Positions 1,385 through 34,429 of a stretch of 34,429 nt of DNA are shown piece by piece (the stretch's first letter is position 1; every line of letters starts with the position of its first letter). Where the stretch lies: the IMG/VR virus record IMGVR_UViG_2693429554_000013; one strand, written 5' to 3'. The DNA is from a virus (Duplodnaviria; Heunggongvirae; Uroviricota; Caudoviricetes). The position numbers and the translations under genes are program-made. The notes below the pieces were generated by a model that saw only the letters and a program-made list of their open reading frames with translations, was not told where the DNA came from and made no database searches.

Positions 1385-2035
1385 TTACAAATTAAAAAAC
1401 GCCCTAGAAATGACACCGCCTACCAAAACCCCTACGCAGATAAAGAATATTATTTCTTTTGGATAAAGCCGGATTAATTCTGAAGCACGAAGTCGGACTT
1501 CTGGTAAGGTCGAACTCTCTGTGTGGCTTGATGCCGATTGTTGCTCTAACCACGACAATGCAGACTGTAACTGAGAACGAGTAAGATCGTTTAAACGTCC
1601 TGTACCGAAATTGATATGGCAATACCGCAGAAGTTTTTGTCGAAGTCCACAGTCTTCACTGTTACGTAGTAATAAACTTACAAGAGCCTTACAGGCATCA
1701 TGATCTTTACATCGCTCAAGCATTGCATGCAGAAAACTCTCCGCTGTTTTATATTGATTTACTGTCATATCATCAATACCAGCTACACCAATCTCCGCAT
1801 GTACTTTTTGCCAAATAATAAACGCTTCAGTAGTGCTAGCTTCTGCAATAGCAGCAACCAAGCTATTTAGCTCCTTACGCTGAGCCTTAAGCAAAGGGCG
1901 ATCGTCATCATCATTATTCGAAGGGATTGCGATATTGACGGTATGAGAACCATCATATCGCTCTATCTGAATATTCTTTTCGTGAAAATCACGCCCAGCA
2001 ACGCGATTGTTTGAACCGTTTGAGTTGACGGCCAT
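1385..2035 (-). CDS. Tail-anchored membrane protein, unknown function, co-oriented with repressor
   Basis: 216 aa; single C-terminal hydrophobic helix IIFFICVGVLVGGVISRAFF; N-terminus NSNGSNNRVAGRDFHEKN resembles the repressor C-terminus; starts 15 bp after the repressor stop. Confidence 0.65.
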   Translation of the reverse strand: MAVNSNGSNNRVAGRDFHEKNIQIERYDGSHTVNIAIPSNNDDDDRPLLKAQRKELNSLVAAIAEASTTEAFIIWQKVHAEIGVAGIDDMTVNQYKTAESFLHAMLERCKDHDACKALVSLLLRNSEDCGLRQKLLRYCHINFGTGRLNDLTRSQLQSALSWLEQQSASSHTESSTLPEVRLRASELIRLYPKEIIFFICVGVLVGGVISRAFFNL

Positions 2036-2050
2036 GTCACCTCCCTACTA

Positions 2051-2455
2051 TCACCTACCCTTAGTTTCGTTATAGTCACGACCAGCGATACGGTTATTAC
2101 CACCAGAAATATTTAACTCACGTCCTGATGGCTGAGTTTCCTTTTCACTGATCGCACCTTTTAAAGCCCCAATCACCGCGTTTTTCACATCTAACGAAGC
2201 TGCTCGAAAGCGAGTAATCAACTCCTGCTCATCATCGTTATAAGTTTCAGGTGAGTGAATTCCCAACACAACATACTGAACATCAAGGCCAAAACGAGAC
2301 AGCGCTGCCAAATACGCAGCATCAGGAAAGCTATCTCCTTTCTCATATCTAAGCTGAGTTAGCTTTTTGACTCCACCAATGTCGCTCATGGCAACTTGAC
2401 TAAGTCCCAATCTTTCCCTTTCCTCACGCAACCGCTGACCAATATCATTTTTCAT
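2051..2455 (-). CDS. XRE-family HTH transcriptional regulator, probable prophage immunity repressor
   Basis: 134 aa; N-terminal HTH IGQRLREERERLGLSQVAMSDIGGVKKLTQLRYEKG; divergent from early operon, next to int as in P2/186. Confidence 0.75.
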   Translation of the reverse strand: MKNDIGQRLREERERLGLSQVAMSDIGGVKKLTQLRYEKGDSFPDAAYLAALSRFGLDVQYVVLGIHSPETYNDDEQELITRFRAASLDVKNAVIGALKGAISEKETQPSGRELNISGGNNRIAGRDYNETKGR

Positions 2456-2470
2456 ACAAAAACCTTGACA

Positions 2471-2488
2471 GGTATCTTTTTTGATACC
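2471..2488. promoter_or_regulatory. Perfect palindrome GGTATC-N6-GATACC directly after a TTGACA hexamer (2465-2470); candidate operator of the immunity switch
   Basis: Read in the 75-bp divergent intergenic region between the repressor (start 2455) and the first early gene (start 2531). Confidence 0.4.
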
Positions 2489-2530
2489 AAAATGATTTCA
2501 CGAGCTATTAGATGATCACAATATACCACT

Positions 2531-2737
2531 ATGAAACAAGTTCTTCACGATACCAGATCACGCATTCCGCGTAACACCGCCACAGGTCCAAGACTGGCAC
2601 TTCGGCTGTCCCTCGAGGAGCGAGCCGTCATTGATGAAATGGCAGCTAAAGAACAACGCTCATCCTCTAACATGGCGCGCATGATCTTCCTTCGCGGCCT
2701 AGAGCTAACCCAGAAAGAACAAAACAAATCTTCCTGA
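2531..2737 (+). CDS. Small ribbon-helix-helix-like DNA-binding protein; putative Cox/Cro-like early regulator
   Basis: 68 aa; LALRLSLEERAVIDEMAAKEQRSSSNMARMIFLRGLE fits a strand-helix-helix pattern; first gene of the divergent early operon; no clear SD. Confidence 0.55.
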   Translation: MKQVLHDTRSRIPRNTATGPRLALRLSLEERAVIDEMAAKEQRSSSNMARMIFLRGLELTQKEQNKSS

Positions 2738-2753
2738 TCAGGAGGCTAGTGGG

Positions 2754-2957
2754 ATGTCAGGTATAACCATCAATATCAATGTGAATGCCCCCTATGTATC
2801 CCTGCAGAAATATGCAGAGATAACAGGTATCCCTCTTAATACGTGCAAAAAGATGTTGGCTGACGGTCGAATTATTATCCGCCCCAAACGCGCCAAAATG
2901 GAAAAGCCTGAAGTAAACCTTGTGGCGATGTTAAAAGACGCTTTGGCTAACAGCTAA
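2754..2957 (+). CDS. Small HTH DNA-binding protein (excisionase/regulator-like)
   Basis: 67 aa; HTH-like YVSLQKYAEITGIPLNTCKKMLADGRI; AGGAGG-like RBS upstream. Confidence 0.6.
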   Translation: MSGITININVNAPYVSLQKYAEITGIPLNTCKKMLADGRIIIRPKRAKMEKPEVNLVAMLKDALANS

Positions 2958-4833: not shown

Positions 4834-5385
4834 ATGAAACTCAAACCAATGGGTACACCTGGTGTGGCTCCGGCACATGTAAAACCATGGACACAGCAGG
4901 AGGATGAACTTTTAGCCACGTTATACCACACCCACACAGCGCCGGAGCTGACAAAGCACCTTCAGAGAACCGAGTCAGCAATACGAAGCCGCATTCGTCT
5001 TTTGCTCTCTCAGGGGGTTATTCACGCCAAACAAACTCCACTGAGTACAAAAGAACTCAGCATGCTCATCAGGAATCGCCACACAAAAACCATCCGGGAA
5101 CTCGCGAATGAGCTGGGGCGCTCGCCATCCACGGTAGAACTGAACCTGAGAAAAAGAGGGTATCGGTTCAGGAAATACGGGGAACTCCACCACAGAACCA
5201 GATACAGCGATCACCTAGTGGAGCTGGTAACTGAACTGCGTGATGAGAAGGGGATGACATTCAGCGAAATCAGGAAGCACATCCGGGACACGACCGGGAT
5301 ATCCCTTAAAAGATGGGTCCCCGCCAGGCTTTACGCACGATATACCGCCGCTGATACCGTGCTTTGCGAACTACTACCGGACTGA
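4834..5385 (+). CDS. Multi-HTH DNA-binding protein with Myb/SANT-like N-terminal segment
   Basis: 183 aa; WTQQEDELLATLY...TESAIRSRIRLL plus two further HTH-like segments (TIRELANELGRSPSTV; MTFSEIRKHIRDTTGISLKRW). Confidence 0.55.
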   Translation: MKLKPMGTPGVAPAHVKPWTQQEDELLATLYHTHTAPELTKHLQRTESAIRSRIRLLLSQGVIHAKQTPLSTKELSMLIRNRHTKTIRELANELGRSPSTVELNLRKRGYRFRKYGELHHRTRYSDHLVELVTELRDEKGMTFSEIRKHIRDTTGISLKRWVPARLYARYTAADTVLCELLPD

Positions 5386-5476
5386 GTAACCACTATGTAC
5401 ACACAAAAAAACCGCTTGCCATGCCGCAATCAGTCAGGTTACATTTCCGCTGCACCTCATAAAACGGGTGCCGGGA

Positions 5477-5694
5477 TTGGAACCCCGCTGACTATACACG
5501 CGCACAACCGCGCCAGCGGTTTTTTTGTGCGTACCGTATCGCCACGTCTTTTTCGCGTCAGAATTATGGTGGGGCGTATGGGGCCGACTTCGGTCGGGCC
5601 GGGTTCGTGTATAGCCGGTAGTTCCAACCCTGTACGTCTCACCACCCCGAGCTTGGAACCTCTGGATGGTGAGTTTTCAAAACTTACTATACAC
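5477..5694. repeat. Three copies of a bipartite motif TTGGAAC(C)-N-CTATACAC (two direct, one inverted) flanking a UUCG-loop hairpin
   Basis: Copies at 5477-5499 (direct), 5607-5629 (inverted), 5653-5694 (direct); hairpin CCGAC-TTCG-GTCGG at 5584-5597. Confidence 0.45.
5506..5527 (+). terminator. Candidate Rho-independent terminator
   Basis: Short GC stem ACCGC/GCGGT with GCCA loop followed by TTTTTT; the stem is short. Confidence 0.35.
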
Positions 5695-5705
5695 GAGGCC
5701 ACACC

Positions 5706-5936
5706 ATGGCAAACCGCAAACAGCACCGCGCTATCGCGGAGCGTCGTCACATCCAGACTGAAATCAACCGCAGACTTTCCCGCGCATTCCGCGTCGCTAA
5801 AATCATGCACATCAATATGCTGCATGAGCGTAGCTGCGAACTTTCAAACCTCTACTCATCCGCTGTTTTCAGCTATCTGGCAGATGATCTGCGCGAGCTT
5901 CAGCAGCTCATCCAGCAGCAAAACAAACTCCATTAA
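5706..5936 (+). CDS. Hypothetical small basic protein
   Basis: 76 aa, charged/helical composition; preferred over the overlapping low-complexity ORF 5395-6012. Confidence 0.5.
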   Translation: MANRKQHRAIAERRHIQTEINRRLSRAFRVAKIMHINMLHERSCELSNLYSSAVFSYLADDLRELQQLIQQQNKLH

Positions 5937-6008
5937 TTCTGGTTCCGGGCCTTTCCTGCACCTTGCGGCGGGAGGCCTTCGCACATCTGTAACAAGAGGA
6001 TTGCCGCA

Positions 6009-6374
6009 ATGATTCTCGCCAACGACTTTCTTGAATACCTGCTCAACACAGAGCGCGATCTTGCCGTTCGCGCGCGTGACCGTTATGACATGTACCTGAA
6101 ATCCCTGCCTGTACCACAGCCCGCTGACGGAAAGATTGTTATTGATGGCCGCTACATGATTGACAGCCACGAGGGAAATTACAGGCTTTACCGCATTGAA
6201 GGCGGCACCCCGTCCGTTATTGGCATTTACCAGCGCCCATCCTCTGCAATCGTCGATGTGATTGCAGACAGCATCCGCATCACACATCGCTATGCCGACA
6301 CAGAAGACACCGTGCTGGAAATTCAGCGGCTGGCTACAGTCTGCCGCGACACCCTGAACGGTATGACGAAGTAA
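6009..6374 (+). CDS. Hypothetical protein upstream of the replication gene
   Basis: 121 aa; RBS AGAGGA; no motif recognised. Confidence 0.5.
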   Translation: MILANDFLEYLLNTERDLAVRARDRYDMYLKSLPVPQPADGKIVIDGRYMIDSHEGNYRLYRIEGGTPSVIGIYQRPSSAIVDVIADSIRITHRYADTEDTVLEIQRLATVCRDTLNGMTK

Positions 6375-6380
6375 ATCACT

Positions 6381-9203
6381 ATGACGACAGAGTACATCAG
6401 GGACTGGCAACAACCGCGCCACGCAGTCGGTCGCGAAGGAACAGGGATCCCCGCACCTGAGTCTGCACTTTCCTCCTGGCTGGATGCCTACCGGACTGAG
6501 AACGAGCGCCGCCAGGAAATGGCTGATGCGGCGTTCTCCGCCACGCCGCTGGGCAACCTGATTAATAAAAGCCTGGACGCACAGGAAAAACAGGACAAAA
6601 CCATCACCCTGGCAGGAGATGCCAGAAAGCAGGCACGCGGCGCGGTGGATGAAGCCATGGCCTCGCTGCGCCTGCTGCCGTCCTATCTGCGCGATCCGCT
6701 TATTCGCCACCTCTCCTTCCTGCGCAAAAAACAGGAAGCCGATCGCCGGAAAGGCAAAAAGAGCTGGCAGGCTGAACGCTACGCGCGCGGAACCCTGCGC
6801 AAAATATTCGAACGTCTGGACCGCACCGACCACCGCTGGCTGACACCGGGTTATCGCTCCCTTGCAGGACGCGAACGCCTGGATGATTTGCTTTACCTGC
6901 CGCAGCTCAACAAGCACCAGATACAGACGCTGGCCACCATGACGGCGGCGATGTTCAGCAGCACCTTCGAAAAACTCTGCGATGGCTTTGGCGCGACTGA
7001 TGGCGAGCTGACCATGGATGTAACCCTGAAGGCGTATCAGATGCTGGCCCGCATGGCGTTACACCTGCACGCCATGCCTCCGCATTATGACGCACTGACA
7101 ACAGATAAAGACCGGAGGAACGAACCGGATACGGAGCTGCTGCCGGGCGCAGTCCTTCGCCTGACTTGTGCGGAATGGTGGAAACGCAAACTGTGGCTGT
7201 TACGTTGCGAGTGGAGAGAAGAACAACTCCGCGCCGCCTGTCTGGTTTCCAGAAAAACATCGCCCTATCTGAGCCAGGACGCATTAAGCGAGTTTCGCGC
7301 ACAGCGCGAGAAAACACGCGATTTCCTGAAAAGTTTCATGCTGGAAAACGAAGACGGGTTCACGATTGATCTCGAGACGGTGTATTACGCGGGAGTAAGT
7401 AACCCGGTTCACCGTAAGGCAGAAATGATGGCCACCATGAAGGGGCTGGAACTTCTGGCCGAAGCCCGTGGCGACAAAGCGGTGTTTCTGACCGTCACCT
7501 GCCCGTCAAAATACCACGCCACAACAGAGAACGGTCATCCGAATCCCAAATGGAACGGGGCCACCATGCGCGACTCCAGCGATTACCTGGTTAACACGTT
7601 TTTTGCGGCGGTCCGCAAAAAACTGAACCGCGACGGCCTGCGCTGGTATGGCATCCGCACGGTGGAGCCTCACCATGACGGCACCGTGCACTGGCACATG
7701 ATGGTCTTTGCTCATCCGGAAGAAATCGACAGCATCGTGGCCATCACCCGCGATATTGCCATTCAGGAAGACCGCCACGAGCTGGGCGATGACATAACTC
7801 CGCGTTTTAAGGCGGAGTACGTCGACGGCTCAAAAGGCACGCCAACCAGCTACATCGCCACCTACATCGGAAAGAACCTGGACAGCCGCGCCGTGGATGG
7901 CATCGACCCGAAAACGGGCAAGCCACGCGTTGACCACGAAACCGGAAAATCAATGGCCGAGAGTGTGGAACGCGCCATCGGCTGGGCGCGCCTTCACCGG
8001 GTCCGCCAGTTCCAGTTCTTTGGCATCCCCTCCCGTCAGGTATGGCGTGAACTCCGCCGCCTTGCCAGCCAGATGGCACGCAACCCGGAAGGCCCACAAC
8101 GGCTGAAGGATGATGCAATGGATGCGGTACTCGCTGCCGCTGATGCCGGGTGTTTTGCCACCTACATTGAGAAACAGGGCGGCGTACTTGTTCCACGCAA
8201 AGACTACCTGATTCGCACCGCCTACGACCTCGCAGATGAGCTGAACGATTACGGTGAACAGAGCGTACAGATTTACGGGATCTGGTCGCCGCTCATCGGG
8301 GAGTCTTCCCGCGTATGCACGCATCCGGATAACTGGAAGCTGGTAAGACGCAAACCGGAAGCGGAAGACAGCGCCCGCGAAAATGGTTTTGACCTTCAGG
8401 GCGGCCCTGCCGCCCCTTGGACTCGTGGCAATAACTGTCCCCATGTACAGGAAACGGACAACAACGGGACAGAACAGCCGGAAGAACGGCCAGCACCGTG
8501 GCCGCAGCTCCCTGGCGGCGTTGAAGTGAACGAATGGATGCGCTCACTGAAACGGCACGAACGCCGGGCGCTGATGCGTTCGCTGCGTGACAAGCAGGCA
8601 AAAAACAGCAGTGATGAAATGCAGAACTGGACACAGAGCCGCAAACAGCCACAGCCTTTGCCTGATAACCACGAATTACTCGCTAAAGAATGGCGGGAGT
8701 CTGCCGAATCTCTCGGCCTGCATATCGGTGAACAGCAGATGCAGCACCTGTTACGGGGCGGCAGCCTGTACGTTGACGGCAGCATCATTGCACCACAGGG
8801 ATTTGAAATTGTACGCAAACCGGATACCCGCCCGGACAGCCGAATCACACAGCTCTGGCAGCACCTGAGCCGTAATCACGGCGTAAGCAGCACGGAGATC
8901 CGCCATAACCCGGTCGCCAGCTATCTGGCACAGCTGGGGGCATCAGACCCCGAAGCCGCCGCACGTCTGGCATCCACACTTCAGCAGGACCAGAACACCA
9001 TGAAAACCCCCGTTACCGTGCTTTCTGACATGCTGCGCGTCATCCGTGACGCAGAGCACGCACAGAGAATCAGTGAAACAACTGAACGCGCCCGCCGCAA
9101 AGCAGACCTGCTGCGGGGTGGCCTGACCAGTGGAAACAAAAAACAGACAGAAACGGGATTCACAAATCCCGTAAATGAGCAAAAAACGCACCGCGATATA
9201 TGA
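6381..9203 (+). CDS. Rolling-circle replication initiator endonuclease, P2 gpA family
   Basis: 940 aa; metal-binding motif EPHHDGTVHWHMMVF and paired-tyrosine motif YIATYIGK typical of the P2 A / phiX174 A superfamily; long C-terminal region. Confidence 0.85.
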   Translation: MTTEYIRDWQQPRHAVGREGTGIPAPESALSSWLDAYRTENERRQEMADAAFSATPLGNLINKSLDAQEKQDKTITLAGDARKQARGAVDEAMASLRLLPSYLRDPLIRHLSFLRKKQEADRRKGKKSWQAERYARGTLRKIFERLDRTDHRWLTPGYRSLAGRERLDDLLYLPQLNKHQIQTLATMTAAMFSSTFEKLCDGFGATDGELTMDVTLKAYQMLARMALHLHAMPPHYDALTTDKDRRNEPDTELLPGAVLRLTCAEWWKRKLWLLRCEWREEQLRAACLVSRKTSPYLSQDALSEFRAQREKTRDFLKSFMLENEDGFTIDLETVYYAGVSNPVHRKAEMMATMKGLELLAEARGDKAVFLTVTCPSKYHATTENGHPNPKWNGATMRDSSDYLVNTFFAAVRKKLNRDGLRWYGIRTVEPHHDGTVHWHMMVFAHPEEIDSIVAITRDIAIQEDRHELGDDITPRFKAEYVDGSKGTPTSYIATYIGKNLDSRAVDGIDPKTGKPRVDHETGKSMAESVERAIGWARLHRVRQFQFFGIPSRQVWRELRRLASQMARNPEGPQRLKDDAMDAVLAAADAGCFATYIEKQGGVLVPRKDYLIRTAYDLADELNDYGEQSVQIYGIWSPLIGESSRVCTHPDNWKLVRRKPEAEDSARENGFDLQGGPAAPWTRGNNCPHVQETDNNGTEQPEERPAPWPQLPGGVEVNEWMRSLKRHERRALMRSLRDKQAKNSSDEMQNWTQSRKQPQPLPDNHELLAKEWRESAESLGLHIGEQQMQHLLRGGSLYVDGSIIAPQGFEIVRKPDTRPDSRITQLWQHLSRNHGVSSTEIRHNPVASYLAQLGASDPEAAARLASTLQQDQNTMKTPVTVLSDMLRVIRDAEHAQRISETTERARRKADLLRGGLTSGNKKQTETGFTNPVNEQKTHRDI

Positions 9204-9244
9204 AGCGCGCACAAAACAGGCAAAAACGGGATTTAAAAATCCCG
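9152..9244. promoter_or_regulatory. Two 20-bp palindromes ACGGGATT-N4-AATCCCGT 73 bp apart, upstream of parM; candidate parC centromere/operator
   Basis: Palindromes at 9152-9171 (inside the 3' end of the gpA-like gene) and 9225-9244; part of a ~40-bp direct duplication. Confidence 0.45.
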
Positions 9245-9279
9245 TAAACGATTAATTAACCAACATAAGGAAAAGCGAC

Positions 9280-10239
9280 ATGAAAATTTGTATCGACGAC
9301 GGCTCCACCAACATCAAGCTGGCATGGACTGAGAATGGCGAACGCCGCAACGCCATCAGCCCGAACAGCTTCAAGTCGGAATGGTCTGCGCCGTTCGGTG
9401 GCATGCAGCCCGCGAACTACATGCTTGATGGCGTGCGCTATGGTTTTGATCCGGTCAGCGATCGCTTTGTCCAGACGACCGACACGCAATACCAGTACAG
9501 CGATGTGAATGTCATTGCCATTCATCACGCGCTGGTCAAATCAGGCATCACACCACAGGAAGTGGATGTGGTTGTCACCCTGCCACTGAGCGAGTATTTC
9601 GATACAAACGCACAGCCGGACATGGCCAACATCAACCGCAAAAAAGCGAACGTCATGCGCCCGGTGGAGTACCAGAACGGCGAAGCATTCACTATCCGTA
9701 ACGTACGGGTTATGCCTGAATCCATTCCGGCTGGCTTTAAGGCACTGGCTGACATGAGTCCGTTTGAATCCCTGCTGATTGTGGATTTGGGCGGAACCAC
9801 GCTGGATGTGGCAAAGGTTCAGGGGCAACTGGCAGGTATCAGCCAGGTGTTTTGCGATCCACACGTAGGCGTTTCTCTGATGGCCGATGCCGTGCTGTCG
9901 GTGATGGCCACCAACGGTATGCGCACCAGTCACCACATCGCCAATACCATTATCGAACATCGCCACGATGAAGCCTGGCTGCGCCAGCACATCCACAATG
10001 ACGCGCATTACGCCAGCCTGATGGCAGTTATTCGTGAAAAGGAGGAAACACTGAAACAACGCGTGATCCGCGCGCTGGCGGGTTTTTCGGGTTACGGGCG
10101 GGTGATGGTTGTAGGTGGAGGAGCGGAGATTGTGGCACCCGCTATCCGCGAAGCCTGCGGAGTTAATGCGACTTTCATCGCGGACGGGGTGCCACAGTTT
10201 GCTCTGGTTAATGGGCTGTACGCAATGGACAAGGAGTAA
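9280..10239 (+). CDS. parM: ParM/StbA-family actin-like segregation ATPase
   Basis: 319 aa; N-terminus MKICIDDGSTNIKLAW and motifs ISPNSFK, YQYSDVNV, LIVDLGGTTLDV match my recollection of plasmid R1 ParM. Confidence 0.85.
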   Translation: MKICIDDGSTNIKLAWTENGERRNAISPNSFKSEWSAPFGGMQPANYMLDGVRYGFDPVSDRFVQTTDTQYQYSDVNVIAIHHALVKSGITPQEVDVVVTLPLSEYFDTNAQPDMANINRKKANVMRPVEYQNGEAFTIRNVRVMPESIPAGFKALADMSPFESLLIVDLGGTTLDVAKVQGQLAGISQVFCDPHVGVSLMADAVLSVMATNGMRTSHHIANTIIEHRHDEAWLRQHIHNDAHYASLMAVIREKEETLKQRVIRALAGFSGYGRVMVVGGGAEIVAPAIREACGVNATFIADGVPQFALVNGLYAMDKE

Positions 10240-34030: not shown

Positions 34031-34288
34031 AGCATGTATCAAATGCGTGACTGAATAATGTCTGCGGTCGGGAATTTTATATCAGAAGGCTGAGAGGCCT
34101 CAACGGATTGAAACAAGGGAAAAAACCAGGCTAGAATTCGCGCGGGTGCCTTTCGGCTGATGGTCGGAGGGAACACCCGAAGGCCGGATGTGGAAAGGCC
34201 CCGGAAAACATTTCTGTTTAACCGAGGCCCTAACCCGTCAACCTAGCAAGTGATAGGTTAGCGCCTCTCCAACAAAGGAGCAAGCGCT

Positions 34289-34429
34289 ATGTCGCAAAAA
34301 TCGCTTACGGCCATCACGTTCTGCGTGACGGTAATCCTCATCATCTGGATGCTGCACGGTTCGCTGTGTGAAATACGGATGAGCTTCTGGGGAGCGGAGT
34401 TTGCGGCGTTCTTACAGTGTAAGCAGTAA
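34289..34429 (+). CDS. hok: Hok/Gef-family type I toxin peptide (HokA-like)
   Basis: 46 aa MSQKSLTAITFCVTVILIIWMLHGSLCEIRMSFWGAEFAAFLQCKQ; TM helix plus SLCEIR...AAF signature; SD AAAGGAG 7 bp upstream. Confidence 0.75.
   Translation: MSQKSLTAITFCVTVILIIWMLHGSLCEIRMSFWGAEFAAFLQCKQ

Follow-up and report, generated by a model that had tools for sequence, protein, structure and literature searches.

A probable C4-type antisense-RNA "second immunity" module in the early operon of a P2-family prophage of E. coli

The window analysed here (34,429 nucleotides; IMG/VR record IMGVR_UViG_2693429554_000013) contains a 320-bp gap between the end of a gene for a 183-aa HTH protein, at 5385, and the next ORF, which starts at 5706. 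We propose that this gap very probably holds a "second immunity" module of the C4 antisense-RNA type, with homologues in c4 of P1/P7, the CI RNA of P4 with seqA/seqC, cA of N15 and isrK-STnc1160 of Gifsy-1. The gap belongs to an established type of regulatory RNA switch in phages, one covered by curated RNA families, and is neither a protein-binding array nor an element of a new class. The module most likely keeps a small antirepressor-like gene of this E. coli prophage silent, possibly together with the replication gene that follows, and it is highly polymorphic in its specificity segment.

Two Rfam models, isrK and C4, match the gap above their gathering scores and at full length (model positions 1–77 of 77 and 1–87 of 87, respectively). 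They explain the repeats that first drew attention to the region, which are the antisense and target segments of an RNA system. This agrees with the structured small RNA that the initial annotation offered as one of two readings. The same pair of families reaches gathering level at 19 of 19 other loci (17 phage loci, P4 and Gifsy-1), and the P1 locus carries c4-a1b1 plus C4. The early regions of P2 and 186 gave no C4 or isrK match, in line with the earlier remark that the gap lies outside the canonical P2 early region. No tRNA or tmRNA was found in the whole window. The elements of the leader and of the C4 RNA are as follows.

5416..5445, + strand: predicted sigma-70 promoter (−35 TTGCCA at 5416-5421, 17-nt spacer, −10 TTACAT at 5439-5444; read by eye)
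5452..5526, + strand: isrK-type leader RNA (Rfam RF01394, 68.7 bits against a gathering score of 50)
5452-5471, + strand: stem-loop 1 of the isrK-type leader
5472-5487, + strand: stem-loop 2 of the isrK-type leader
5506..5527, + strand: predicted Rho-independent terminator (AACCGC-GCCA-GCGGTT, then T7; from a scan)
5562..5649, + strand: C4 antisense RNA gene (Rfam RF01695, 81.3 bits against a gathering score of 45)
5584..5597, + strand: C4 hairpin 1, with a UUCG tetraloop (pairs change on both sides in 5-9 of 21 sequences)
5598-5602 / 5615-5619, + strand: stem of C4 hairpin 2, whose 12-nt loop holds b'
5605..5614, + strand: antisense segment b' (UCGUGUAUAG), in the loop of C4 hairpin 2
5621..5630, + strand: antisense segment a' (GUUCCAACCC), in the unpaired C4 junction

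Transcription from the internal promoter is expected to start near 5452. A promoter scan found 9 of 12 consensus matches and read the −10 element as TACATT behind an 18-nt spacer, with 0.8 such sites expected by chance in the scanned stretch. By eye, a −35/−10-like pair ends 6-7 nt 5' of isrK position 1 in all 20 of the 20 printed loci, and the P1 record annotates promoters at the equivalent place. No LexA-box-like CTG-N10-CAG was seen by eye in 5386-5452. As to the terminator, the initial annotation had placed a hairpin followed by T6 at 5506-5527; the scan recovered the hairpin (5506-5521), but the run is of seven T (5520-5526). In the Rfam isrK model, this terminator is the 3'-terminal element. 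The c4-a1b1 motif (Rfam RF03163) stays below gathering level, with 19.0 bits against 46.7 over 5439-5491. The a1/b1 function is probably present, but in an isrK-type variant of the leader. Hfq binding by this leader, and its release as a short RNA from its own promoter, are putative.

The C4 RNA consists of a long outer stem around two hairpins. The covariance comparison across relatives that had been proposed bears this fold out, since 15 of its 27 consensus pairs show compensatory, both-sides changes among 21 sequences. The CCGAC-UUCG-GUCGG tetraloop hairpin pointed out at 5584-5597 is present there and is C4 hairpin 1. By homology with the annotated 77-nt C4 of P1, the mature RNA is predicted to span about 5568-5646, or ~79 nt; folded as a single sequence, 5568-5646 reaches −44 kcal/mol (z = −5.05).

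The bipartite repeat, TTGGAAC-N(5-35)-CTATACAC, has exactly three matches in the 34.4-kb window, all inside the 320-bp gap. A pattern search places them at 5477-5499 (+), 5607-5627 (−) and 5653-5694 (+). There were no matches in 100 dinucleotide-preserving shuffles, and none is expected. CTATACAC alone occurs three times against 0.47 expected, always in the gap; TTGGAAC alone is unremarkable (three matches against 5.4 expected in the same window). The direct, inverted and direct copies described previously are thus real, although the inverted one, correctly placed, ends at 5627 and not at 5629. The repeats also extend beyond the cores given then, with b sites of 9-10 nt (CTATACACG with an optional A) and a sites of 7 nt exact, or up to 10 nt at 90%. 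The three copies correspond to the sites annotated in P1 as a1/b1, a'/b' and a2/b2, and the inverted one occupies precisely the loop and the junction of the C4 fold that covariation supports. The target sites are the following.

5474..5483, + strand: target a1 (core TTGGAAC at 5477-5483), in the loop of leader stem-loop 2; co-varies with a' and a2
5492..5500, + strand: target b1 (CTATACACG), in the single-stranded linker 5' of the terminator; co-varies with b' and b2
5650..5660, + strand: target a2 (core TTGGAAC at 5653-5659), a few nt past the predicted C4 3' end
5687..5696, + strand: target b2 (CUAUACACGA), overlapping the SD ACGAGG at 5693-5698, with the ATG at 5706

Segment a' matches both of its targets over 7 exact nt, and b' matches its own over 9 and 10. 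Target a2 lies in the loop of an alternative hairpin (5638-5654 / 5657-5673), in which 5 of 7 pairs show compensatory changes among 17 loci. An SD-like GAGG or GGAG lies 3' of b2 in most printed loci.

All three copies change together across 23 related loci, P1, P4 and Gifsy-1 included. In 18 of 18 loci, a' matches its own a1 and a2 over at least 7 exact nt, and b' over 5-10 nt; the mean match is 7.0-8.6 nt within a locus versus 4.3-4.6 nt with other loci. The a alleles and the b alleles assort independently among these 18 loci. Among five ~90%-identical P88-like phages, 34 of 60 site columns are variable versus 20 of 259 elsewhere (odds ratio 15.6, p = 4e-16). Three further loci contributed three more compensated allele sets, and the P88-like loci hold at least seven different a/b allele sets, all compensated three ways. 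In an energy calculation, the cognate duplex was the most stable, or within ~1.5 kcal/mol of the most stable, in 22 of 28 rows. By analogy with P1, P4 and Gifsy-1, the a/b sequences would serve as specificity alleles, such that phages with different alleles would not cross-repress each other.

Three genes downstream of the module may come under its control.

5706..5936, + strand: 76-aa ORF, a distant homologue of P4 epsilon (Pfam PF25738, "Derepression") and the presumed regulated gene
6009-6374, + strand: 121-aa ORF, maybe under polar control
6381-9203, + strand: 940-aa GpA-type replication endonuclease (PF05840, 436.8 bits), maybe under polar control

The 76-aa ORF passes the PF25738 cut-off narrowly (29.5 bits against 27), while P4 epsilon, the archetype of the family, scores 170 bits. 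In a single BLASTP comparison, the two proteins share 29% identity over 66 aa (E = 1e-8), and RefSeq names the ORF "derepression protein". Among P88-like phages its identity is 70-100%, whereas their repressors share only 23-32% identity with that of the window; the ORF does not co-vary with repressor type. This conservation across divergent repressors makes it doubtful that the epsilon-like protein acts on the phage's own repressor. By analogy with P1 and P4, the module may exert polar control over the genes in 6009..9203.

From these elements a working model can be assembled, in which expression, processing and binding in this prophage are modelled on the homologues. The internal promoter-like site at about 5416-5445 would drive transcription from near 5452, and the leader so made would carry a1/b1 and end in a weak intrinsic terminator. 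Transcripts that read through would be cut by RNase P at the 5' end, giving a stable, trans-repressing C4 of ~79 nt as predicted from P1, P4 and Gifsy-1. On the same grounds, C4 would pair with a2/b2 and block translation of the epsilon-like gene; Rho would then terminate on the untranslated RNA, so that the 121-aa ORF and replication gene A would be off as well. The short leader RNA, with its a1/b1, would compete for C4 and relieve the block. The mechanism in P1 and P4 is taken from the P1 GenBank annotation, from PMC4825925 and from the work of Citron and Schuster in 1990 and 1992 and of Hartmann et al., Forti et al. and Sabbattini et al. in 1995. One result from Gifsy-1 bears on the last step of the model. 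There, breaking a1:a' in cis raised, rather than lowered, expression (PMC4825925 Table 1D), which a pure decoy model fails to predict and which makes the role proposed for a1/b1 tentative.

The window's module resembles several known systems, and departs from each of them in some respect. With immI of P1/P7 it shares the Rfam family RF01695, the order a1, b1, C4 (with a' and b'), a2, b2 and ORF at similar spacing, the position of b2 beside or over the RBS, and segments that co-vary between heteroimmune relatives. Unlike in the window, the P1 leader matches c4-a1b1 (RF03163) rather than isrK, the controlled genes are icd-ant rather than an epsilon-like 76-aa ORF followed by replication genes, and immI is a separate operon under a C1 operator rather than part of a P2-type early operon. 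In P4, the CI RNA (seqB) matches C4 at 74.9 bits and the seqA region matches isrK at 60.8 bits; here too, an epsilon-family gene lies downstream, followed by a replication gene, and the module has its own promoter directly upstream. The P4 left operon carries the CI RNA (seqB) along with seqA and seqC, and epsilon, orf151, cnr and alpha lie downstream. However, ~245 nt lie between CI and epsilon in P4, as opposed to the window, in which the epsilon-like ORF begins ~57 nt 3' of the C4 match, or ~60 nt from the predicted mature 3' end. P4 has the alpha primase-helicase where the window has the GpA rolling-circle nickase, and the 121-aa ORF is unrelated to orf151, with no homology in the comparison of the two. 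Moreover, P4 is a satellite, whereas the host element here is a full P2-family phage.

Experimental support exists for a homologue, isrK-orf45/STnc1160-anrP of Gifsy-1, in which isrK (RF01394) and a C4 homologue precede an antirepressor gene (PMC4825925). There, the compensatory mutants G28A/C162U and G31A/C159U prove the a1:a' pairing (PMC4825925 Table 1D), and in our alignment the mutated positions map exactly onto a1 and onto a' of the C4 homologue. In Gifsy-1, the terminator of the leader is leaky and the short RNA that it yields is a trans-activator of expression; supplying short IsrK in trans raised translation of the downstream antirepressor by more than 100-fold (PMC4825925 Table 1B). 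Gifsy-1 differs in being lambdoid, with the module near the Q-like antiterminator gene antQ, and in its other type of antirepressor; furthermore, the window has no orf45-like frame ending close to the following start codon. In the lambdoid phages ST64B, mEp460, cdtI and Stx2a_1447, isrK plus C4 is part of the early-right operon, between cII-like genes and an antirepressor, with replication genes following, and in N15 the equivalent locus (cA) is annotated as "secondary immunity repressor". The lambdoid loci differ from the window in their Rha/Ant-type antirepressors and in that their RNA region is inside over-extended CDS annotations; their DNA similarity to the window starts only at the isrK start.

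Several other readings of the gap were weighed against the one proposed. First, the same RNA system could have premature transcription termination, rather than a translational block, as its main output, as in P4 and N15, with shut-off of replication gene A in the lysogen, and not antirepressor control, as its purpose. We consider this possible, if somewhat unlikely. The P4 CI RNA and seqA region do match the same Rfam models, and the gene order parallels that of P4 (leader, C4, epsilon homologue, small ORF(s), replication gene). The epsilon-like protein does not follow the type of repressor. In base composition, the regulated ORF is rich in C and poor in G, and C outnumbers G (1.4-1.75) across 5640-5960, as would suit a Rho-loading region. 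The placement of b2 over the SD, however, argues that translation is acted on first, and termination in P1 and P4 is a consequence of the block in translation. Whether the block or termination comes first is therefore a difference of emphasis, and sequence separates neither version from the other.

Second, the module could be a cis-acting conformational switch on the Gifsy-1 model, in which the a1/b1:a'/b' fold is inactive, the short leader refolds it in trans, and translation of a short ORF from the C4 AUG at 5566 is coupled to the downstream gene, no free C4 being needed. AUGs at 5566 and 5578 are conserved, and the alternative hairpin, which uses the 3' strand of C4, co-varies. In P1, though, processed C4 reportedly acts in trans (Citron and Schuster, 1990), and the P1 record annotates a 77-nt C4 RNA together with its target sites. 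The frame from the C4 AUG is broken after 8-14 codons in three loci, and in the window the frame from 5566 runs for 148 codons, out of frame with the 5706 ORF, so that coupling by a nearby stop in the Gifsy-1 style is unavailable here. For Gifsy-1 itself, native gels, 30S binding data and start- and stop-codon mutants of orf45 favour the switch, yet a stable processed species, STnc1160, was detected from the segment (PMC4825925). On this evidence the cis-acting switch is distinctly improbable as the full account for the window, with the caveat that it and the antisense model are not mutually exclusive.

Third, it is very improbable that the region codes for protein, as the 205-aa "Ash family" ORF at 5395-6012 (Pfam PF10554) would have it. 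This frame is open in all P88-like and many lambdoid loci, scores 28.2 bits against a cut-off of 26, and is annotated as a CDS in 569R5 and P88_4B11; RefSeq, by contrast, treats it as an incomplete pseudogene. The PF10554 match is confined to the RNA region (aa 16-105, nt 5440-5710). The frame stops inside C4 in P1, a Yersinia phage and PhiR12_2_star, its length from the C4 AUG ranges from 8 to 261 codons among loci, and the differences in leader-plus-spacer length between loci are not multiples of three. Such an ORF would also cover the promoter, the terminator and the RBS of the next gene and overlap the epsilon-like ORF in another frame, and nucleotide changes cluster in the compensating RNA sites. 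The coding reading was rejected on two counts: its only match, "Ash", lies over the RNA segment, and the frame is not conserved. In P4, the immunity factor is reportedly an RNA (Forti et al., 1995), which superseded the equivalent "cI ORF". A minus-strand ORF at 5457-5825 was likewise rejected as coding, having no family match.

Fourth, the repeats are almost certainly not double-stranded DNA operator or iteron sites for the 183-aa multi-HTH protein or a replication protein, the other reading in the initial annotation. Three mixed-orientation copies near an HTH gene and 5' of replication gene A invite it, and co-variation of all copies, which protein-binding sites would also show, is alone not decisive against it. 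However, P88 and vB_EcoM-569R5 keep the module with other genes in place of the HTH gene, and Citrobacter phage Shae_phiSM combines a 97%-identical HTH protein with b sites that are wholly different (CTATACACG versus CAACCAAAG). With the module present without the HTH gene, and the b sites changing under a near-constant HTH protein, the repeats are not tied to a cognate DNA-binding protein nearby, and the array was rejected. Moreover, 15 covarying pairs and an Rfam score of 81 bits support an RNA whose loop and junction coincide exactly with the inverted copy, and the same architecture stands beside non-P2-type replication genes (lambdoid phages, P4) and in unrelated contexts (N15, P1). Finally, the P2 replication origin is annotated inside gene A, with the nick site at ori, and likewise by similarity in the 186 record.

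Beyond the C4-type module itself, a 23-nt inverted repeat links its terminator to sequence farther upstream.

5397..5419, + strand: left arm (GTACACACAAAAAAACCGCTTGC), a candidate antiterminator, 91% complementary to 5512-5534
5512..5534, + strand: right arm, comprising the 3' half of the terminator stem, the U-tract and GUGCGUAC

The left arm lies upstream of the predicted isrK start and would therefore be carried only by transcripts coming from the early operon. In predicted folds it displaces the terminator stem, whose probability is 0.88 for a start at 5452 and falls to ~0 once 5396 onward is included. Homology to relatives begins at the arm core, CAC-A7-CCGCTTGCC. Across 8 P88-like loci, among them three extra ones from a scan of the genome collection, this core and both arms show no change, and hence no covariation. 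According to our hypothesis, transcripts that come from the repressor-controlled early promoter and carry 5397-5419 would sequester the 3' half of the leader terminator and read through, whereas internal-promoter transcripts without the arm would stop there and yield the short a1/b1 RNA. The A7 tract, at about −46 to −40, could instead be an UP element of the promoter. In addition, the early-operon terminators of phage 186 are antiterminated according to its record, so the family may have another route to read-through.

We put forward, as a rather unlikely extension, that P88-like (Xuanwuvirus) phages carry a P4-type cassette of promoter, seqA/isrK, CI/C4 and epsilon homologue within the early operon, in which the arm would make the terminator promoter-selective and let early-promoter transcripts reach replication gene A, and that helpers and satellites would cross-silence or derepress each other's replication via matching alleles. 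If true, a single RNA immunity system, its a/b alleles exchangeable, would be common to helper-type phages and P4-like satellites. Among the papers searched, none joined "c4 antisense RNA" with "P2-like", and "Xuanwuvirus" had only incidental mentions.

In the RefSeq and GenBank records examined, the module is without RNA annotation and appears as an "ash family protein" pseudogene, a hypothetical protein or the N-terminus of over-long antirepressor genes. Recognising it as RNA corrects these annotations, and places a second, RNA-based layer of immunity in a widespread group of P2-family prophages, whose polymorphic alleles matter for cross-regulation among co-resident prophages and satellites. 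The module is common, since a 555-bp query spanning 5386-5940, the gap plus the epsilon-like ORF, is matched by 1,251 of the 5,426 complete E. coli genomes. The window's exact allele pair, by contrast, was present in only 2 of the 5,426.

The gap at 5386–5705, between the 183-aa HTH gene and the 76-aa ORF in the early operon of this P2-family prophage, is clearly a member of the C4/CI-RNA antisense immunity family with an isrK-type leader, carried by a P88-like P2-family prophage. A structured small RNA was one of two readings offered in the initial annotation, and it is borne out by two Rfam families in the gap, both over their gathering scores; no tRNA or tmRNA is present. The elements, including the target site pairs (a1/b1 and a2/b2) and the antisense segments of the C4 RNA (a′ and b′), are listed below.

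Elements of the RNA module
5452–5526, isrK leader (RF01394), full model, 68.7 bits against a cut-off of 50
a1, in the loop of leader stem-loop 2
b1, just 3′ of a1
5562–5649, C4 antisense RNA (RF01695), full model, 81.3 bits against a cut-off of 45
b′, CGUGUAUAG, in the 12-nt loop of C4 hairpin 2
a′, GUUCCAA, in the C4 junction
a2, a few nt 3′ of the C4 end
5687–5696, b2, overlapping the Shine-Dalgarno sequence ACGAGG (5693–5698) of the ORF starting at 5706

The repeats and hairpins that first drew attention to the gap are parts of these RNAs. The bipartite motif TTGGAAC-N(5-35)-CTATACAC, described as three copies, indeed has three matches in the 34.4-kb window, every one in the gap (5477–5499 (+), 5607–5627 (−) and 5653–5694 (+)), and none in 100 shuffles; by a repeat finder, the b sites reach 9–10 nt and the a sites 10 nt at 90%. 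The direct copies are the two target pairs, and the inverted copy, which ends at 5627 and not at 5629 as originally given, is two unpaired parts of C4. The CCGAC-UUCG-GUCGG hairpin, correctly placed at 5584–5597, is C4 hairpin 1. The terminator-like hairpin (5506–5521) is the leader terminator; its location was right, but its T-run is T7 rather than T6. Alignment with P1’s annotated C4 predicts a mature C4 of ~5568–5646, which on its own folds with −44 kcal/mol (z = −5.05) and leaves a′ and b′ unpaired.

In P88-like phages (genus Xuanwuvirus) the gap has homologues of ~90% identity, and in many lambdoid and Stx phages of ~70–75%; the isrK and C4 pair was found in 19/19 other loci scanned by Rfam (17 fetched phage loci, P4 and Gifsy-1). 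The C4 consensus fold contains 27 pairs, 15 with compensatory changes. In each of 18 loci, a′ matches its own a1 and a2 over at least 7 exact nt and b′ its own b sites over 5–10; the site matches average 7.0–8.6 nt within a locus versus 4.3–4.6 nt between loci, and the a and b alleles assort independently. Among five P88-like phages, variable columns are concentrated in the six sites (34/60, versus 20/259 elsewhere; p = 4e-16). Three extra, fully compensated allele sets come from E. albertii, Salmonella and a contig labelled Vagococcus, and in 22 of 28 rows the cognate duplex either ranks first in stability or falls short of the best by no more than ~1.5 kcal/mol. The last contig (Vagococcus sp. 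WN89Y, nominally of a Gram-positive genus) carries a P88-like enterobacterial prophage segment whose epsilon-like protein is 84% identical to that of the window; its label probably reflects contamination or mislabelling.

The module is common in E. coli, a 555-bp query (5386–5940, the gap plus the epsilon-like ORF) matching in 1,251 of 5,426 complete genomes, and it carries no RNA annotation in the records examined. The exact a′/b′ allele pair of the window (5596–5640, at least 99% identity) occurs in only two of the 5,426; the specificity segment is thus highly polymorphic, with very diverse alleles. The query is 100% identical in strains 48956 and 47258, and some E. coli genomes have 2–4 places matching it. 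The window prophage adjoins yecA in E. coli.

A second conformation is possible at 5638–5673, where the outer stem of C4 could exchange partners: its 3′ strand, CUCACCACC, can pair instead with GGAUGGUGAG, which repeats the 5′ strand further downstream. This helix, which puts a2 in a hairpin loop, has 7 pairs, 5 of them with compensatory changes over 17 loci, suggesting a precursor conformation in competition with C4 folding.

Known systems share this architecture. The P1 GenBank record has the same layout with similar spacing (a1, b1, a 77-nt C4 RNA, a2, b2, icd), although P1 combines C4 with c4-a1b1 (RF03163), unlike the other 19 loci. In P4, the CI RNA matches C4 and the seqA region matches isrK; therefore, the gene order of the window (promoter, leader, C4, epsilon-like ORF, 121-aa ORF, replication gene A) runs parallel to that of the P4 left operon (promoter, seqA, CI, seqC, epsilon, orf151, cnr, alpha), although the 121-aa ORF has no relation to orf151 and the two replication proteins differ in type. 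The region had been judged foreign to the canonical P2 early region, and rightly so, as isrK/C4-type RNA was not found in the early regions of P2 and 186.

In Gifsy-1, a C4 match comes after the isrK match. With numbering that begins at isrK position 1, the mutations of Hershko-Shalev et al. 2016 place G28 and G31 in a1, C159 and C162 in a′ of the C4 homologue, and A107 in the AUG at the C4 5′ end. Thus, the compensatory double mutants G28A/C162U and G31A/C159U (PMC4825925, Table 1) demonstrate a1:a′ pairing in a homologous module. In trans, surplus short leader RNA raised translation of the downstream antirepressor >100-fold (PMC4825925, Table 1), and a stable processed RNA, STnc1160, was detected from this segment (PMC4825925). 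That report named P4 SeqA a structural homologue of IsrK and likened STnc1160 to P4’s CI RNA, its only link to C4-type systems (PMC4825925). Given these mutants, and that ‘orf45’ starts inside the Rfam C4 match, the Gifsy-1 locus (34131–34316 (−)) is readable as a C4-type system.

The sequence itself supplies a promoter-like site, a leader that bears a1/b1 and ends in a terminator, the C4 fold, complementary antisense and target segments, the b2/Shine-Dalgarno overlap and the allele co-variation; the steps joining them are inferred from P1, P4 and Gifsy-1. C4 would be cut from read-through transcripts and, on a2/b2, would block translation of the epsilon-like ORF, and the untranslated RNA would then be ended by Rho. 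Compatible with Rho loading, C is in excess of G (1.4–1.75) over 5640–5960. The ORFs up to gene A would thereby be kept silent in the lysogen, with the same effect against superinfecting phages of matching alleles, and the short leader RNA would vie for C4 and relieve repression. Gifsy-1 single mutants misfit a pure decoy model for a1/b1 in cis (PMC4825925), and the exact cis role of these sites is uncertain.

Two candidate features would go further than the known family, namely helper-satellite cross-talk and an antiterminator. A 23-nt arm at 5397–5419, 5′ of the predicted start, has 91% complementarity to 5512–5534, a stretch made up of the leader terminator’s 3′ half, its U-tract and eight more bases. 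The predicted terminator-stem probability is 0.88 for RNAs from 5452 and ~0 with the arm. The arm core is invariant in eight P88-like loci, whose homology starts at the arm despite different upstream genes. We propose that the arm would let early-operon transcripts read through, while internal-promoter transcripts would terminate. Three points call for caution: the two arms show no variation and thus offer no covariation, the A7 tract (about −46 to −40) lies where a promoter UP element would, and a different antitermination process is noted for the early operon in the 186 record.

The other original reading, an iteron or operator array bound by the adjacent multi-HTH protein, would equally fit the site co-variation by itself, but fails on three grounds. 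First, the HTH gene is missing from P88 and vB_EcoM-569R5. Second, Shae_phiSM has an HTH protein 97% identical to that of the window and entirely different b sites. Third, the inverted copy coincides exactly with segments left unpaired in an RNA whose fold covariation supports.

ORF 5395–6012 (+) is most likely a conceptual translation of the RNA genes and not a real protein, since its match to Pfam PF10554 (Phage_ASH) covers only aa 16–105 (nt 5440–5710) and therefore falls on them, its frame is interrupted by stop codons within C4 in P1 and two further loci, and from the AUG of C4 it stays open for between 8 and 261 codons. PF10554 also matches P4’s obsolete ‘cI ORF’ (8168–8584 (−) in the P4 locus, L019) and N-terminal extensions of lambdoid antirepressor CDSs (e.g. 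1641–2792 (+) in L007); the true P4 epsilon has no PF10554 match and matches PF25738 instead. A P4-like satellite census (PMC8628076) states PF10554 as its ‘epsilon’ marker, which probably picks up the CI/C4 RNA locus. In RefSeq, the region appears as an ‘ash family protein’ pseudogene. In ST64B-, mEp460- and cdtI-like lambdoid phages (L007, L008, L009, L010 and L018; ~1641–2790), the CDS annotated ‘antirepressor / transcriptional regulator / peptidase’ is over-extended ~600 nt upstream, in frame with the real start (MATIP...), across promoter, isrK, terminator and C4.

The ORF at 5706 narrowly matches Pfam ‘Derepression’ (29.5 bits versus 27), whose archetype is P4 epsilon (170 bits), and shares 29% identity with the latter over 66 aa. 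The epsilon-like protein (5706–5936) is 70–100% identical among P88-like phages, varying mostly at residues 25–55 of the Shae_phiSM copy, while their immunity repressors share only 23–32% identity with the window’s 134-aa HTH repressor (2051–2455, −); that it targets the phage’s own repressor is uncertain. The GpA-type protein (6381–10239 region) is unusually long, 940 aa versus the 2286 nt (~761 aa) of P2 gene A, with a long extra C-terminal part beyond the Phage_GPA Pfam match, which ends at residue 503. A ParM-like segregation gene and a partition gene follow 3′ of gene A, which hints that such prophages might also persist as plasmids. Between integrase and repressor, 1008–2035 (−) encodes a DUF2511 protein and a 216-aa membrane protein with weak resemblance to Flk, a flagellar regulator (58.6 bits, well short of the cut-off of 353), probably cargo acquired by the prophage.
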